Shown here one piece after another: positions 3,498-63,246 of a stretch of 64,000 nt of DNA; within the stretch, counting starts at the first letter, position 1, and each line of letters starts with the position of its first letter. A program made the position numbers and the translations under genes. A model generated the notes under the pieces. The model ran no database searches, had not been told where the DNA came from, and worked only from the letters and a program-made list of their open reading frames with translations. The DNA comes from Acidobacteriota bacterium (lineage in GTDB: Bacteria > Acidobacteriota > Thermoanaerobaculia > Gp7-AA8): positions 32,960 to 96,959 of the forward strand of contig QHVT01000023.1 of the NCBI GenBank assembly GCA_003223645.1, read 5' to 3'.

Positions 3498-4136
3498 ATG
3501 GCAATCGAAGGAATCATTGGCAAGAAGGTCGGGATGACCCAGGTGTTCGCCGAAGACGGCGCGCTGATCCCTGTCACGGTCATCCAGGCCGGGCCGTGCC
3601 TGGTCGTACAGAAGAAGACCTCCGAGAAGGACGGCTATGACGCCGTGCAGATCGGGCTGGTCGAGAAAATCTCGAACCGCCGCGTGACCAGCGCGCGTCG
3701 CGGACACTTCGAGAAAGCGGGCGTGCAGCCGTTGCGCACGCTGGCCGAAGTCCCGTACAGCGGCGATGTGAACATCGGCGATCGCGTGCAGGTCGACCTC
3801 TTCAAGGCCGGCGACGCCATCGACGTCGTGGGTCAGTCGAAGGGCAAGGGCTTTCAGGGCGTCGTTCGCCGTCACGGCTTCGGCGGCGGCCGCGAGTCGC
3901 ACGGCTCGATGTTCCACCGCGCCCCCGGCTCCATCGGCGCGTCGGCGTTTCCGTCGCGCGTCATGAAGGGCATGCGCATGGGCGGCCGGATGGGTGGCGA
4001 TCAGGTGACGGTCAAGAACCTTCGCGTGGCGAAGGTCGATGCCGAGAACAACCTGCTCTACATCCGCGGAGCGGTCCCCGGTGGTCGGAACGGTCTCGTG
4101 TTCGTGCAGTTTTCGAAGAACGGGAAGCGGGGATAA
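3498..4136 (+). CDS. rplC: 50S ribosomal protein L3
   Basis: [26 protein letters not shown]. Confidence 0.99.
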
Positions 4137-23632: not shown

Positions 23633-24418
23633 ATGCGCAAATTCGCTCTCGCCGCCGTATTCCTGTTCGTCGCCGCCACCGCGTCCGCAGCCACGCTCTC
23701 AGAGACGGTCGACAAAACGCTGGACGTGAAGCCCGGCGCGACGGTCGCGCTGACGAACGTCAACGGCCGCATCACGATCGCGTCGTGGGACCAGCCGCGC
23801 GTGCACATCGTCGCGACGAAGGAAGTCGACGGCAGCCGCGACGACGCGCGCGACGCGATGAAGGAGCTGCGCGTCGAGATCACACAGCCGAACGGCGGCG
23901 TGAAAATCGACACGAAGTATCCGAGCCGCGACGAAGGGTTCTCTTCGATCTTCGACTGGCTCCTCGGCCATCACGTCAATGCCGAAGTGACGTACGAGGT
24001 GACGATCCCGCGCACGATGAACGTCGACGTGCGCAACACCAACGGCTCGATCCATCTCGCCGACATCACCGGCCATCTCGAGCTCGACACCACGAACGGC
24101 AAGATCGAAGTGAGACGCTGCGCCGGCTCCATCGAGGCGTCGACGACGAACGGCGGGATTTACGCGGAGCTGCTGCGCGTGACGAAAGGCGCGCCGCTGC
24201 GCTTCGAGACGACGAACGGCCGCATCGAGATCGAGGTGCCGCGCGACCTTGCCGCGAACATCGATGCAGGAACGACGAACGGATCGATCAGCACCGACCT
24301 GCCGATCGAGACCACGCACTTCAAACGCAACTCGCTCCGCGGCTCCATCAACGGCGGCGGTACGCCGATCAGCCTTCACACGACGAACGGGCCGATCGCG
24401 ATCAAGACGCGGACTTGA
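23633..24418 (+). CDS. DUF4097 (putative adhesin) beta-repeat secreted protein
   Basis: Signal peptide; repeated TTNGxI motifs. Confidence 0.85.
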   Translation: MRKFALAAVFLFVAATASAATLSETVDKTLDVKPGATVALTNVNGRITIASWDQPRVHIVATKEVDGSRDDARDAMKELRVEITQPNGGVKIDTKYPSRDEGFSSIFDWLLGHHVNAEVTYEVTIPRTMNVDVRNTNGSIHLADITGHLELDTTNGKIEVRRCAGSIEASTTNGGIYAELLRVTKGAPLRFETTNGRIEIEVPRDLAANIDAGTTNGSISTDLPIETTHFKRNSLRGSINGGGTPISLHTTNGPIAIKTRT

Positions 24419-24431
24419 TTCGGACAGAATT

Positions 24432-24877
24432 TTGATTCGCGAGACAAGCTCGTTGATTCACGAATCAACCAAGGTTGATTCGCGAGACAAGCTCGTTGAT
24501 TCACGAATCAACCAAGGTTGCTTCGCGAGACGAAAATTTTTCCGCGCGAGACAAGAGACCTTGCCTGGCGAGCCAAATTCGCCGCTGATGGCAGGTAAAT
24601 TTTTGCTTCGCGAAGCAAATGTCTTTGACTCGCGAGACAGCAGGACTTGCCTCGCGAATCAAAACTGTTGCCTCGCGAATCAACCATGGTTGCCTCGTAA
24701 GGCAAACTCGTTGTTTCGCGAATCAACCATGGTTATCTCGCGCATCAAACTTCCAGTCTCGCGAGGCGAGCGCGTTGTCTCGGGAATCAACACCCGTTAT
24801 CTCGCGAGTCAACATGCCTTGTCTCGCGAATCAACACCGTTATCTCGCGAATCAACGAGCTGGATTTGCGAATCAAC
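24432..24877. repeat. Array of roughly 21 quasi-palindromic units (~21-bp period, TTGnyTCGCGArnCAA)
   Basis: Recurring TCGCGA core flanked by TTG/CAA; first 43 bp exactly duplicated (24432-24474 = 24475-24517). Confidence 0.9.
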
Positions 24878-24894
24878 GCGTACGTTGCCGGCGG

Positions 24895-25170
24895 CGACGA
24901 ACGGCGGCATCTACGCGGACTCACGCGCGTGACCAAAGGCGCGCCGCTGCGCCTGGAGACGACGAACGGCCGCATCGAGATCGAAGTGCCGCGGGACCTC
25001 GCCGCGAGCATCGAGGCGGGAACGACGAATGGCTCGATCAGTACCGACTTGCCGATCGAGACCACGCACTTCAAACGCAACTCGCTGCGCGGCTCGATCA
25101 TCGGCGGCGACACGCCGATCAGCCTGCACACGACGAACGGGCCGATCGCGATCAAGACGCGGACTTGATT
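24895..25170 (+). pseudogene. Diverged duplicate of the 3' ~277 bp of the DUF4097 gene
   Basis: Aligns to 24144-24420 including stop; mostly synonymous differences, net 1-nt deletion near 24920, no convincing start. Confidence 0.9.
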
Positions 25171-25385
25171 TGCACTGCGGCAGCTACGCTGCCGCTTTCG
25201 AAAGCTCCTGTGGAGCGGTGGCCGCTCTCGGCCGCCGGATTCTCGCGATGGGTCGGCGGCCGAAGCGGCCGCCGCTCCACAGATCCGTGACGATCAGCCG
25301 CTGCCGCTTTCAAGAGCGACAGCGATGGCGTCGCCGATCGCAGCCATCCTGTGTGCAAAAGCGGCGGCGTAGCCGCCGCACTCCA
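25171..25385. repeat. Composite: TGGAGTGCGGCGGC-type inverted pair enclosing a GTGGAGCGG REP (25208-25282)
   Basis: 25171-25199 is the near reverse complement of 25357-25385. Confidence 0.75.
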
Positions 25386-37556: not shown

Positions 37557-37643
37557 ATGAAGGCAGAAGGCAGAAGGCAGAAGGCAGAACGGAGAAGTTC
37601 GCCTTCTCACCTCTGCCTTCTGCCTTCTGCCTTCTGCCTTCAT
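37557..37643. repeat. Fold-back microsatellite, 7-mer GAAGGCA / TGCCTTC
   Basis: ATGAAGGCAG...CTGCCTTCAT; same element at 53341, 53540, 55659. Confidence 0.92.
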
Positions 37644-44174: not shown

Positions 44175-44186
44175 TAAACTCCTGCA

Positions 44187-44260
44187 AGCCTCGGGGTGGC
44201 CCACCGGCCTGAGATCAAACCCGCGGAACCTGATCCGGTTCGCACCGGCGTAGGGAAGGC
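44187..44260 (+). promoter_or_regulatory. TPP (THI-box) riboswitch
   Basis: CGGGGTG..CTGAGA..ACCCG..GAACCTGATC.GG....CC.GCGTAGGGAAG consensus; P1 GCCT/AGGC. Confidence 0.93.
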
Positions 44261-44262
44261 AA

Positions 44263-46365
44263 ATGGAACTATTACTTTTTCTTCTGCTCGCGGCCACGCA
44301 GCAATCGCAACCGCAATCGCAATACTCCGAATCGATCGTCGTCTCCGCCATTCGTGCTGACGATGAGACTCCGGTCACGAAGACCGACATCCCGAAGAAG
44401 GAGATCGAAAAGCAGTATCACGGGCAGGACGTCCCGCTGCTCCTGCGCGACGCGCCTTCGATCAACGCGTACACCGAGTCGGGCGTCGGCGGATCCGGGT
44501 ACTCGTACATCTCGCTGCGCGGCGTCAGCCCCACGCGCATCAACTTCACGCTCGACGGCGTTCCGCTCGCCGACTCCGAAGACATGGGGACGTACTTCGC
44601 CGACTTCCCCGACCTCGCGCGCTCTCTGGAAAGCATCCAGGTCCAGCGCGGCGTCGGCACGTCGACCGTCGGCTCGCCGTCGTTCGGCGGCAGCGTGAAC
44701 ATGGAGAGCGTCGCACTCTCCGGCACGCAGAAAACCAACGCGACGCTCGGCATCGGCTCGTTCGGCAATCGGCAGGCGAGCGTCGGATATCAGTCCGGCA
44801 ATCTCCCGAACGGCCTCGCGCTCTACACGCGCCTCTCGTACCTCGAAAGCGACGGCTTCCGCGATCACTCCGGCATCCAGCAGCACAACATTTTTTTGAG
44901 TGCTGCGAAGACGCTCGGAAGCGACGCGCAGCTGCGCCTCACCGGATTTTCCGGACACGAGAAACAGGGACTCGCATTCAACGCGACCGACGCCGACACG
45001 CTGAAGACCGACTTGCGCGCGAATCCGATGCGCCCCGAAGAGATCGACAGCTTCGGCTACGACCTCGCGCAGCTGCAGTATCTGCGCGCGAACATGACCG
45101 CATCCGTTTACTACCAGCGCGGCTACGGCTGGTACCGCCTCTTCGACTTCGGCACCGACGATCTTCGCGAGTATGGCCTCGACGGCATGCTCCTCGGCAC
45201 GCTGCTCACGTACTCGAAGTCCTTCGGCTCGATCACGACCAACTACGGCGTCCACCTCAATCGCTTCCAGCGCGATCACACGCGCGACGACCTGTCATCC
45301 CGAGCGCTCAGCGAGGGACCTGGGTGGGTGGGGCACGACACACGTGCCTCCCTCGCTGATGCGCGGGATGACACGCGCGACTACGCGAACTACGGCGTGA
45401 AAGACGAAGCCAACGCGTTTGCGAAAGCGACGTGGACCGGCGGCGCGTGGCACGTCTACGGCGACGCGCAGCTGCGCTACACCGATTTCACGTATCACGG
45501 CGACGTGCACATCCCGTCGATCTCCTGGACGTTCTTCAATCCGAAGATCGGCGCGCGCTACGACCTCTCGCCGCGCGCGAGCGTCTACGCATCCGCCGGC
45601 ATGTCCACGCGCGAGCCGACGCGCAACGACATGTTCCAGGGCGAAGACAACGCGTCCTTCGCTCACGACCTTCATGCAGTACGTCCCGAGCGCTTGTACG
45701 ACCTCGAAGCGGGATGGAACTTCCGCGCGAAAAACCTCGACCTCTCCGCGAACGTGTACGCAATGGAGTTTCACAACGAGATCGCGTCGACCGGCGAGCT
45801 GTCGGACATCGGACTGCTTCTCCGCCGGAACGTCGATCGCAGCTATCGTCGCGGCGTCGAGCTCGATGCGGCGTGGCAGGCCGCGCCGAACGTGCGTTTG
45901 AAGACGAACGCAAACCTCAGCCGCAATCGCATCGACGAGTGGACGCAGTTCTTCGACGTCTACGACGCCGATTTCAATTTCACCGGCTCGCGTCCGCAGC
46001 AATATCGCAACGTCGAGCCTCTGCTCACGCCGAACGTGATCGTCAATCAATCGATCGAGTACTCGCCAACCTCGCGCCTCGCCCTCGGCGCGACCGGCCG
46101 CTACGTCGGCCGCTCGTATCTCGACAACACCAACGATCGCGACTTCGCGGCGCCGTCGTTCTTCGTCCTCGACGCGAACGTCGCGTACGCGATCACGCCG
46201 CAGGTGCGCCTCTCGCTGCAGATCAACAACGCGCTGAACAATGATCGCGTCTATCCGAGCGGCTACAGCTATCGCTACGACTTCGACGGCGTGCCCACCG
46301 GCACGGCGTACTACTATCCGCAAGCCACGCGGAACGCGGTCATGCTGATGGACGTCGCTTTTTGA
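44263..46365 (+). CDS. TonB-dependent receptor, probably thiamine
   Basis: TonB-box-like ESIVVSA, plug LRG..RINFTLDGVPL, IQVQRG, C-terminal F; under TPP riboswitch. Confidence 0.92.
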   Translation: MELLLFLLLAATQQSQPQSQYSESIVVSAIRADDETPVTKTDIPKKEIEKQYHGQDVPLLLRDAPSINAYTESGVGGSGYSYISLRGVSPTRINFTLDGVPLADSEDMGTYFADFPDLARSLESIQVQRGVGTSTVGSPSFGGSVNMESVALSGTQKTNATLGIGSFGNRQASVGYQSGNLPNGLALYTRLSYLESDGFRDHSGIQQHNIFLSAAKTLGSDAQLRLTGFSGHEKQGLAFNATDADTLKTDLRANPMRPEEIDSFGYDLAQLQYLRANMTASVYYQRGYGWYRLFDFGTDDLREYGLDGMLLGTLLTYSKSFGSITTNYGVHLNRFQRDHTRDDLSSRALSEGPGWVGHDTRASLADARDDTRDYANYGVKDEANAFAKATWTGGAWHVYGDAQLRYTDFTYHGDVHIPSISWTFFNPKIGARYDLSPRASVYASAGMSTREPTRNDMFQGEDNASFAHDLHAVRPERLYDLEAGWNFRAKNLDLSANVYAMEFHNEIASTGELSDIGLLLRRNVDRSYRRGVELDAAWQAAPNVRLKTNANLSRNRIDEWTQFFDVYDADFNFTGSRPQQYRNVEPLLTPNVIVNQSIEYSPTSRLALGATGRYVGRSYLDNTNDRDFAAPSFFVLDANVAYAITPQVRLSLQINNALNNDRVYPSGYSYRYDFDGVPTGTAYYYPQATRNAVMLMDVAF
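45293..45373. repeat. TGTCATCCCGAG element inserted in frame in the TonB receptor
   Basis: 81 bp, TGTCATCCCGAGCG..CGCGGGATGACA; left arm nearly identical to 9151. Confidence 0.88.
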
Positions 46366-53336: not shown

Positions 53337-53670
53337 ACAGATGAAGGCAGAAGGCAGAAGGCAGAAAGCAGAAGGCAGAACGAGGGAGCGGCTCGATGCG
53401 CGTGCATCGTTGCCTTTCTCACTTCTGCCTTCTGCCTTCTGCCCTCTGCCTTCATCGGATTAACGATGGCGACCAAAGATCAGGCGACGATCCGCAATCC
53501 GCATCCGTCGCTGGTGGTGGAAGGACACAAGGCATAAAGATGAAGGCAGAAGGCAGAAGGCAGAAAGCAGAAGGCAGAACGAGAGGCCGGCACGTTGCAC
53601 GTGCAACGTCGAACTTCTCACTTCTGCCCTCTGCCTTCTGCCTTCTGCCTTCATCGGTTACGGATTAACG

Positions 53671-58091: not shown

Positions 58092-59080
58092 TCGCAACGC
58101 TCGCGCTCTTCGCGCTCATCACGTCGGCGACACCGCCCGACCTCCCGGGCCCGGTCTCGATCCAGCAGAAGCTCAACACGCAGATTCCGCTCGATCTGAT
58201 GTTCCGCGACGAGACGGGAAAGATCGTCCGGCTGCGCCAGTACTTCGGCAAGAAGCCGGTCGTGCTCGACTTCGTCTACTACCGCTGCCCGATGCTCTGC
58301 CCGATCGTCCTCGATGGGACGACCGAGGCGCTGACGAATCTGAAATACGACATCGGAAAAGAGTTCGACGTCATCACCGTCAGCATCGATCCGCGCGACA
58401 AAGTCGAAGACGCCGCGCGGATGAAAGAGAAGTACATCAAGCGCTACGGCCGCCTCGACTCCGCGCCCGGCTGGCACTTCCTCACCGCGAACGAGACCCC
58501 GATCAAGCAGCTCGCCGACGCCGTCGGCTTCCAGTTCGCGTATGACGCGAAGATGGACCAGTTCGCGCACGGCGCCGCGCTCTTCGTCCTCACCCCCGAC
58601 GGCCGCACCTCGCGCTACTTCTACGGCTTCGAATACAAGCCGCGCGACTTGCGGCTCGCGATTTTCGAAGCGTCGCAGGGAAAGATCGGCGGCGTCGTCG
58701 AACAGGTCCTCCTGCTCTGCTTTCACTACGACCCGAAAGTCGGCAAGTACAGCCGCGACGCGATGATCTTCGTGCGCGCCGGCGGCGTGACGACGATGCT
58801 GGCGCTGGGTGGATTCATTTTCGTGATGATTCGTAAGGAGCGGATGGCAGATGGCAGACGGCAGATGGCAGAGAAGCGGATGGCAGATGGCAGACGGCAG
58901 ATGGCGGAACAGATGGCAGATGGCAGACGGCAGATGGCGGAAGACGCCACTGCTGACTCTTCGCCATCCGCCATCTGCCATCCGCCATCCAATTCGCCAT
59001 CCGCCATCAGCCATCCGCCATCCGACCCGCCATCCGCCATCCGCCATCTGCCATCCGACCGGGAGGGCGGCCGCCCGTGA
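58088..59080 (+). CDS. SCO1/SenC family copper chaperone with repeat-derived tail
   Basis: CPMLC, SIDPRD, WHFLT, FAH, C-terminal TM. Confidence 0.92.
   Translation: MIATLALFALITSATPPDLPGPVSIQQKLNTQIPLDLMFRDETGKIVRLRQYFGKKPVVLDFVYYRCPMLCPIVLDGTTEALTNLKYDIGKEFDVITVSIDPRDKVEDAARMKEKYIKRYGRLDSAPGWHFLTANETPIKQLADAVGFQFAYDAKMDQFAHGAALFVLTPDGRTSRYFYGFEYKPRDLRLAIFEASQGKIGGVVEQVLLLCFHYDPKVGKYSRDAMIFVRAGGVTTMLALGGFIFVMIRKERMADGRRQMAEKRMADGRRQMAEQMADGRRQMAEDATADSSPSAICHPPSNSPSAISHPPSDPPSAIRHLPSDREGGRP
58841..59057. repeat. Triple-block GATGGCA fold-back read in frame in SCO
   Basis: 3 left and 3 right blocks; no stop until 59078-59080. Confidence 0.92.
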
Positions 59081-62900: not shown

Positions 62901-63246
62901 CGCGATGTCGTCGTTGACTTCCCGGATGTCAATTTGACATCGGCGCTTTCATCGTCCTTTCGGCGAAGTCAATTTGACATCGGCGAATTCATCGATCCTT
63001 TCCGCGATGTCAATTTGACATCGGCGCTTTCATCGATCCTTTCGGCGATGTCAATTTGACATCGGCGCTTTCATCGATCCTTTCCGCGATGTCAATTTGA
63101 CATCGGCGCTTTCATCGATCCTTTCCGCGATGTCAATTTGACATCGGCGAATTCATCGATCCTTTCGGCGAAGTCATTTTGACTTCCGCGAGGTCATCAT
63201 GCTTTGGGCGATGTCCACGTTGACTCCCGGCGAAGGATCAACGATC
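62901..63246. repeat. Tandem array: 7 x ~41-bp units built on palindrome GATGTCAA-T-TTGACATC, degenerate ~21-bp flanks
   Basis: Unit starts 62925, 62965, 63006, 63047, 63088, 63129, 63170 (last degenerate). Confidence 0.95.

Follow-up and report, generated by a model that had tools for sequence, protein, structure and literature searches.

Downstream of a DUF4097 gene, in the 64,000-nucleotide stretch of contig QHVT01000023.1 of an Acidobacteriota bacterium that was analysed here (the window, to which all coordinates without a contig prefix refer), positions 24432–24877 are occupied by a tandem array of short palindromes. The question raised by this locus is what such an array represents and how it came to lie there. 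Comparison with related genomes and with metagenomes suggests, at about even odds (a probability of roughly 0.5), that it is an operator-type array for a dimeric helix-turn-helix (HTH) protein, present here as a dispersed orphan copy.

Anatomy of the array

The array is composed of 21 phased units of TTGnnTCGCGAnnCAA, whose start-to-start spacing alternates between 21 and 22 bp. Its parts are as follows.

24432..24877, no strand: phased array of 21 units, each a 16-bp palindrome TTGnnTCGCGAnnCAA with a 5–6-bp spacer; left and right units are oppositely oriented
24432..24517, no strand: exact tandem duplication of a 43-bp double unit (24432–24474 repeated at 24475–24517)
24577..24618, no strand: array centre, a 26-bp stretch with one decayed in-phase unit, followed by a perfect palindrome, TTGCTTCGCGAAGCAA (24603–24618)

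The units were delimited by phase rather than by motif, which gives the number of 21. The 12 core positions (TTG, TCGCGA, and CAA) carry the consensus base in 17–20 of the 21 phase-defined units, as against 8–12 of 21 at the inner positions 4, 5, 12, and 13 and 7–11 of 21 at the spacer positions; this site-like contrast between core and variable positions supports the interpretation of the units as binding sites. With up to two mismatches allowed, TTGNNTCGCGANNCAA is matched 21 times in the 64-kb window, 19 times within 24432–24876, whereas shuffled sequences averaged 6.0 matches and never exceeded 12 (0 of 100 reached 21). Autocorrelation of the array peaks at 21/22 (0.43), 43 (0.54), 64/65, and 86 bp (0.54), and its GC content of 0.51 is lower than those of the 1-kb flanks (0.65 and 0.67). 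The early (left) units read TTGATTCGCGAGACAA (TTGATT..AGACAA) and the late (right) units read the reverse complement, TTGTCTCGCGAATCAA, inverted arms being detected. An earlier interpretation made from the letters of this DNA (the sequence-only reading) had described about 21 palindromic units with a period of about 21 bp, to be checked by autocorrelation, as well as a GC content below that of the flanks, an exact 43-bp duplication at the start, and an opposite reading of early and late units, and all of these descriptions are borne out. The exact 43-bp duplication, judged from the sequence, indicates recent slippage.

The same reading had named an assembly artefact and a conserved protein with 7-residue repeats as the two findings that would undo it. 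Contigs assembled from runs of two other studies (X3 and X4) match 24491–25079 with 0 differences (the source sample is possibly among those runs), and a contig from a variant strain (X9) crosses the left junction of the array (24380–24469); the array is not an assembly artefact of its record alone. A coding repeat was also rejected: the open reading frames (ORFs) 24249–24932 and 24619–25290 cross the array, but Pfam gives no match to them and their translations contain no regular heptad, the frame being displaced by the alternation of 21 and 22 bp, and the relatives lack the array. CRISPR arrays consist of repeats with unique spacers of about 26–72 bp accompanied by cas genes, whereas the spacers here measure 5–6 bp and no cas genes occur among the neighbours in the window.

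A dispersed family of arrays

The genome containing the window (G000; 6.38 Mb in 51 contigs, Thermoanaerobaculia) harbours six arrays of this motif, with 13–21 recognisable units each, and at least nine such arrays are present in the sister species G018, at other places. This search of the genome and its relatives, with tabulation of the neighbouring genes, had been proposed by the sequence-only reading; Pfam scans identify the neighbours of all six arrays as unrelated housekeeping genes. Exact matches to the motif number 18 in the genome itself, 17 in G018, and 5 in G008, and 0–1 in 32 of the 34 other genomes of the genus. The phasing is a property of the whole family: among 216 pairs of neighbouring units in 15 arrays, 101 are spaced at 21 bp and 62 at 22 bp (163 together), nearly all of the remaining pairs are 42–43, 63–65, or 86 bp apart, and all six arrays of the genome are in register. 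So is the polarity: left halves contain 29 units with the TTGAT half-site on the left ('ab') and 6 of the opposite form ('ba'), as against 10 and 43, respectively, in right halves. Whole arms of the arrays are thus mutually inverted, and no distinct terminal sequence is common to the six copies. As is typical of MITEs (miniature transposable elements with inverted repeats), the family has multiple dispersed intergenic copies that are present in some relatives and absent from others.

Two of the arrays, on contigs C29 and C44, align in inverted orientation over 562 bp at 87.5% identity, with sharp ends and a single 21-nt indel; such paralogy with sharp ends indicates that whole arrays are copied. 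Ordered strings of diverged units are common to the array on contig C4 and several arrays of G018. The 21-nt indel and the exact 43-bp duplication in the window array together represent the change in unit number by slippage that characterises minisatellites, or variable-number tandem repeats.

Arrays with the same core are not confined to these two species. A scan for a two-unit pattern, in one genome per species, returned 37 loci, about half of them chance matches of two units; because the pattern fixes the spacing of the two matched units at 21–22 bp, the agreement in period among these loci is partly built in. Same-core arrays (TTG..TCGCGA..CAA, 21–22-bp period) were found in other Thermoanaerobaculia (9 and 16 units), in a Polyangiaceae metagenome-assembled genome (MAG) (L045, 10 units), and in Scytonema hofmanni UTEX 2349 (L038, 12 units), as well as in a Pyrinomonadaceae MAG (L072) and a Myxococcales MAG (L066), so that phyla distant from one another are represented. 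That independent lineages share 12 specified bases is notable. The corresponding scan of metagenomes gave 68 loci, 34 of them with at least 5 units and the largest with 29, again beside unrelated housekeeping genes. One metagenomic locus, L097 (contig Ga0190272_10000008), carries a very regular array of 13 units, TTGGCTTGCGACCCAA, at exactly 21 bp, between mnmE and mnmG. BLAST of the window array against plasmid and phage collections gave no match, and the pattern scan of 2.9 million viral contigs gave a single locus of only two units.

Phased arrays and the P0003 gene family

The motif family is one of many in the genome. With minimum values of 15 bp for the period, 4 for the copy number, and 150 bp for the length, Tandem Repeats Finder listed 102 arrays, about 36 kb in total, of which 91 have periods of 20–22, 41–44, 63–65, 84–88, or 105–108 bp, that is, about n × 21.5 bp. 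These arrays span more than 20 unit families, several with many orphan copies (for example, GGCCGGTTGCAAATGAAAACA at 13 loci or more), and many of the consensus units, read by eye, consist of a palindrome of about 16 bp and a spacer of about 5 bp. The possibility that TCGCGA-type units serve as universal end modules of such arrays was rejected, as they occur in the 130-bp flank of only 5 of 96 other arrays.

A gene family associated with the arrays emerged from a 1.4-kb segment of which the genome has three copies, about 89% identical (C21:117497–118908, C8:41246–42661, and C51:81311–82677), each copy adjoining a 43-bp array whose unit sequence differs among the copies. The segment contains two ORFs of 239 and 202 aa, in which the differences among copies concentrate at third codon positions. 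The second, 202-aa ORF (designated P0003) has hundreds of homologues annotated as hypothetical, and Atlas clusters with features similar to those of P0003 are commonest in Acidobacteriota and Myxococcota. Its predicted structure is all-helical, with a 54-residue helix and a pLDDT (predicted local distance difference test) score of 90.4. No match to P0003 was found in Pfam, NCBIfam, PHROGs, PADLOC, or PDB sequences, and no relatives were found in the viral contigs; in structure searches the best Foldseek E value was 4.5, and the best wide VIA-align hit (Z 6.2) fell on a generic long helix.

A profile search identified 27 P0003-family loci in the genome. At 20 of them a tandem array lies upstream within 1.5 kb, at none does one lie downstream, and 7 are without an array. 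Viewed from the arrays, 16 of the 102 have a P0003-family gene within 1.5 kb and 86 are orphan. At several P0003 loci a divergent XRE-family HTH gene lies on the far side of the array. In a variant of this cassette (C48:3933–5999 and C41:106729–108785), the P0003-family gene and the divergent XRE HTH gene precede a third gene, of about 95 aa, and the array directly follows the latter; the resemblance of the third gene product to RelE/ParE was an impression from reading its sequence and obtained neither family match nor search support.

The window itself contains a second array of the general type, at 62918–63215 (C40:95877–96174; 41 bp × 7.3 copies, with the 17-bp palindrome GATGTCAATTTGACATC), which the sequence-only reading had placed at 62901 and rightly described as resembling the array at 24432–24877 in architecture but not in sequence. 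It lies 956 bp upstream of a P0003-family gene (C40:97130–97747), which would begin at window coordinate 64171, just beyond the window end, and near-identical copies of this array together with the gene are found at C29:1503–2544 and C46:81362–82414.

TCGCGA-type palindromes in HTH–P0003 cassettes

Palindromes of the type found in the window array are present between XRE HTH and P0003-family genes at four loci, the metagenome loci L079 (4 units), L090 (17 units), and L114 (17 units), and the sister-species locus G018:C309, the units of the last being degenerate but retaining the CGCGAATCAA half-site found in the window array. Partial cassettes are represented by L094, with a P0003-family gene and a 10-unit array whose far side is off the contig, by L139, with an HTH gene and an array, and by G018:C209, with a gene that has two inverted units about 85 bp upstream, no Pfam match, and membership of the P0003 family. 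The cassette HTH genes match Pfam HTH_3 and HTH_31 and, weakly, the PADLOC model 'Control_protein' (E 4e-4). Read by eye, the predicted recognition helix is RKQVQ or RKQVY in the four cassette HTH proteins, and RQQVY, RRQIQ, RRQLS, RRQLA, or RSQLQ in the paralogues of G000. The nearest HTH genes of G000 (the closest being at C48:4778) are 67% and 59% identical to that of G018:C309, and the best G000 match to the partner protein of the TCGCGA clade is 39% identical, as compared with 64% in G018; a close orthologue of this partner is therefore missing from G000.

Insertion at the DUF4097 locus

How the window array reached its present site can be followed from its flanks, which contain the features below.

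23633..24418, + strand: DUF4097 ('toastrack') gene, intact, with its 3' end duplicated (PF13349, E 2.3e-14)
24139..24425, + strand: left copy of a direct repeat of about 287 bp, comprising the true 3' end of the DUF4097 gene and 7 nt past its stop codon
24889..25175, + strand: right copy of the direct repeat of about 287 bp, a fragment of the gene that is frameshifted by 1 nt close to its 5' end
25207..25288, no strand: dispersed REP-like (repetitive extragenic palindromic) repeat of about 80 bp, just downstream of the array but not part of it, with many genomic copies

The setting is chromosomal, with the gene order rpsD, rpoA, rplQ, then a DUF885 gene, an M28 peptidase gene, the DUF4097 gene, and the array, followed on its 3' side by a short-chain dehydrogenase (SDR) gene and by glutamine-synthetase-like and aldehyde-dehydrogenase genes. 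The two copies of the direct repeat align over 251 nt at 92% identity (283 nt at 90% in a second comparison), and a 100-aa remnant ORF in the right copy (24866–25168) matches the DUF4097 C-terminus. In all nine relatives' loci that contain it, the end of the DUF4097 gene, represented by both copies here, maps to a single region (G018, G005, G013, G009, G016, G003, G011, G004, and G006; one further unpublished genome was aligned but not counted). Moreover, the 979-bp stretch of the window corresponds to only 56–356 bp in eight of the nine relatives that have both flanks on one contig. Because the relatives show a single DUF4097 3' end, no array, and a shorter gap, the sequence comparison identifies the array at this locus as an insertion acquired after the split from these relatives, and the 287-bp duplication of the gene end means that the DUF4097 gene stayed intact despite the insertion. 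In the ninth relative, G001, the DUF4097–SDR gap is occupied by about 2 kb of unrelated DNA without tandem repeats (G001:C393:4052–6054), which suggests that insertions may recur at this gap.

A metagenome contig of low depth (X8, 3.45) passes from the DUF4097 gene, with no array in between, to the sequence found here after the second repeat copy. Of the 21 sites that differ between the copies, the 13 leftmost have the allele of copy 1 in this contig, and 7 of the 8 sites rightward that of copy 2, the last of the 21 being unread at the contig end. As a lead only, this pattern would fit either an ancestral empty site with Campbell-type entry through homology or a pop-out between the repeats; X8 may also be an assembly path through a sparsely covered graph, and it is not counted as proof of an array-free allele.

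The long flanking duplication is absent at the other 5 arrays of the motif in the genome and at 11 loci in relatives; seen at this array only among these 6 + 11 loci, it was rejected as a hallmark of the family. Neither is there a short target-site duplication at 5 of the 6 copies here or at the 11 loci in relatives, the window copy having the 287-bp duplication instead. The flanks of the C15 and C29 arrays are not adjacent in the four relatives compared for synteny. A 116-bp 'repeat' flanking the C8 array proved to be a dispersed element and was discarded; this element (e.g., G000 C8:110844–110958), with about 45 copies, constitutes a second dispersed palindromic family beside the REP-like repeat of about 80 bp, which shows very high depth in metagenome contigs. 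Elsewhere in the genome, a 58-bp direct repeat (C32:3094–3151 and 3635–3692; 91% identity, unique in the genome) brackets another 21-bp array together with its surroundings, and is a second instance of a long flanking duplication.

Proposed origin of the array

In the predicted origin of the window array, each 16-bp palindrome would be a putative site for a dimeric HTH protein, and the mean spacing of 21.5 bp, equivalent to two helical turns, would give every site the same face of the double helix. The array type would be at home in the small cassette described above, in the gap between the divergent XRE-family HTH gene and the all-helical P0003-family gene. Arrays would grow and shrink by slippage of units, be copied whole into new intergenic sites, and then decay; the window copy would have arrived at the DUF4097 gene's 3' end after the species had split from its relatives, with the 287-bp duplication sparing the gene. 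It is assumed, from sequence, that the units are recognised by the HTH protein or by its partner and that orphan arrays derive from cassette arrays rather than the reverse, so that the window copy may be a relic or a decoy. The half-sites vary independently, without pairing covariation, and therefore a protein site fits the units and a hairpin does not. The suggestion of the sequence-only reading that a dimeric protein coats one DNA face is accordingly retained in part: it gains indirect support from the same palindromes in the divergent promoter gap beside an XRE-family HTH gene at four other loci, while the centromere or iteron role that was attached to it is not supported, for the reasons given below.

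Several observations weigh against this origin. P0003 itself obtained no fold or function match in sequence or structure searches, and three paralogues that are 81–83% identical adjoin arrays of unrelated sequence, which disfavours a simple pairing of one protein with one motif. The association of the present motif with the cassette rests on few loci and orphans dominate, because among 51 loci with at least 5 TCGCGA-type units (some of them mutual duplicates and some with short flanks) a P0003-family gene is present in 3 and an HTH gene in 1 more. Moreover, the arrays of L090 and L114 use TTRGCTCGCGAGCYAA-type units, with inner bases unlike those of the window array, and the CGCGAATCAA half-site is common to it and the G018 cassettes only. 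No cassette genes were found near any of the six motif arrays of G000, none of which thus occupies an HTH promoter gap. Finally, the C29 and C44 arrays have diverged almost evenly, at 19 of 252 core, 7 of 84 variable, and 22 of 204 spacer positions, and therefore give no sign of current purifying selection on the sites. A master-copy model, in which sites would be constrained only where an array functions while its copies decay, may reconcile this even divergence with the strong contrast within arrays.

The same even divergence, together with the observed gain and loss of units, is what would be expected of a selfish or neutral foldback minisatellite, a MITE-like element with inverted unit runs as arms and no dedicated binding protein, in which palindromes persist by favouring slippage and cruciform or foldback structures. 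The opposite orientation of the halves, the dispersal of copies among unrelated genes, and the orphan state of 86 of the 102 arrays agree with such an element, as does an arm-on-arm fold of the single-stranded DNA at -123 kcal/mol (shuffles, -75 ± 4.6; z = -10.5). However, even decay cannot yield positions conserved at about 90% beside others at about 40% in one array, and the 20 arrays upstream and none downstream of one gene family would be unexpected for a free-living selfish repeat. In addition, no terminal inverted repeats beyond the units, no short target duplication, and no adjacent transposase were found; a search of the genome for PF01797 (Y1_Tnp) gave one weak match (C4:53122, 32.9 bits), far from any array, and genome self-BLAST found no element with half-arrays bracketing genes. 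We therefore hold the foldback element to be possible but doubtful. A role selected by the host, in which orphan arrays act as a sponge that titrates an HTH regulator or makes incoming cassettes with the same operator incompatible, would account for the many in-phase sites of predicted high-affinity type, for the related HTH genes in the genome (67% and 59% identity), and for the persistence of the array in at least two strain variants. We consider it unlikely, since the site is empty in all related species examined, the cores of the C29/C44 pair show no purifying selection, and the 8 operator matches outside the arrays in the genome (up to one mismatch) include none that is operator-like or adjoins a regulator gene.

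The serial hairpins of the sequence-only reading, that is, a transcribed array serving as structured RNA or as a source of small RNAs, are conceivable in that every unit is able to fold into a 6-bp stem closed by a CGCG loop and one terminator-like hairpin pair is predicted inside the array. Across 231 units, however, the variable positions do not covary, positions 4 and 13 pairing in 84 units (expected, 76.9 ± 7.0) and positions 5 and 12 in 109 (expected, 111), and in the window array positions 4 and 13 pair in only 5 of 20 units. Since covariation, an Rfam match at the array, and promoter-like sites (0 sigma-70-like sites in 24300–25300) are all lacking, a selected RNA or DNA hairpin is unlikely, and a transcribed array of hairpins very unlikely. 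The only Rfam match in the window is a TPP (thiamine pyrophosphate) riboswitch at 44182–44273 (RF00059, 68.1 bits), and no tRNA genes were found in the window; hairpins of another kind, formed by a heptamer run and its reverse-complement run with a heptamer that differs by locus, occur at many window sites (e.g., 37559–37641, 53343–53453, and 58843–59057). A centromere or iteron array of plasmid or phage type, left by an integrated replicon, is highly improbable. Iterons are spaced at 22 bp, and an iteron array consists of 17–22-bp direct repeats beside a rep gene or an origin; the units here, although similarly spaced, are palindromic, have no rep gene nearby, and occur in six chromosomal copies. 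The tandem, phased sites with inverted-repeat cores are a feature shared with partition centromeres, and the design resembles that of F-plasmid sopC (PMC3177203). Nevertheless, adjacent partition genes are missing at the six arrays, around each of which a distance of 6 kb contains neither ParA nor ParB nor Rep genes, the setting is one of chromosomal housekeeping genes (rpsD–rpoA–rplQ nearby), the site is empty in relatives, and neither plasmid nor phage BLAST matches were obtained, the scan of 2.9 million viral contigs giving one match of only two units.

Returning to the operator-type origin, a wider and quite doubtful proposal is that the XRE-type HTH gene and the P0003-family gene make up, together with the arrays and in some cases a third small gene, a cassette system not described before, which would be present in multiple copies in soil Acidobacteriota, perhaps also in Myxococcota, and whose operator arrays would expand, diversify, and shed free copies acting in trans as decoys or incompatibility determinants. 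If true, this system would explain about 100 arrays, one 21.5-bp register, and more than 20 unit sequences in one genome.

Comparison with known systems

Intergenic repeats of bacteria are usually classed as REP, MITE, or minisatellite, without a partner gene, whereas about one sixth of the 102 arrays here lie directly upstream of one uncharacterised gene family. This upstream-only DNA element provides a first functional handle on the family, whose hundreds of members are annotated as hypothetical proteins and for whose fold, predicted with confidence, no solved relative was found. If the units are operators, they would show that arrays of binding sites can multiply and spread in nature and persist after their regulator is gone, with a bearing, if true, on the origin of transcription-factor decoys, satellite DNA, and new regulatory sites in bacteria. 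Keyword searches of the open-access literature, which are not proof of absence from print, found no description of a prokaryotic foldback-type array and none of phased palindrome arrays tied to a cassette of an XRE-HTH and an uncharacterised protein.

The array is worth comparing with several systems that it resembles in part. XRE/Cro-type HTH dimers, including the controller proteins of restriction-modification systems with their C-boxes, recognise palindromes of 14–18 bp, and their operator regions hold 1–4 sites. The likeness lies in the palindromes, to be read by a dimer, in the divergent promoter gap beside an HTH gene (L079, L090, L114, and G018:C309); in contrast, 10–29 phased sites are present here, and most arrays stand alone, far from an HTH gene. 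In sopC of the F plasmid (PMC3177203), 43-bp tandem repeats each contain a 16-bp inverted repeat, to which an HTH protein binds as a dimer. The window array shares the 43-bp register and the 16-bp inverted repeats, but it differs from that description in having two palindromes per 43 bp, no sopA- or sopB-like genes, six chromosomal copies, an empty site in relatives, and opposed halves.

Among dispersed repeats, BrickBuilt of Porphyromonas gingivalis (PMC4596501) is a minisatellite-bearing MITE with 23-nt units without spacers, fixed leader and tail subunits, and small inverted ends. Like the present arrays, it is dispersed, strictly intergenic, and lineage-restricted, with tandem units of about 22 bp and several to tens of copies per genome, whereas the units here are palindromic, the spacers between them are hypervariable, neither a leader nor a tail was found, and inverted runs of units make up the arms. 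REP sequences, bacterial interspersed mosaic elements (BIMEs), and REPINs (REP doublets forming hairpins; PMC3116915 and PMC3733652) are likewise short palindromes clustered between genes that acquire long hairpin potential when placed head to head; the arrays differ from them in lacking the GTAG/CGTC tag (the units start with TTG), stem covariation, and a nearby gene for a REP-associated tyrosine transposase (RAYT). The inverted arms have a parallel in eukaryotic foldback transposons such as Galileo and Tetris (PMC3688188 and PMC4079207), whose long inverted arms of tandem subrepeats hold multiple sites for a DNA-binding domain and seed satellite arrays; these elements differ from the present arrays in being eukaryotic and in having known transposases and target duplications.
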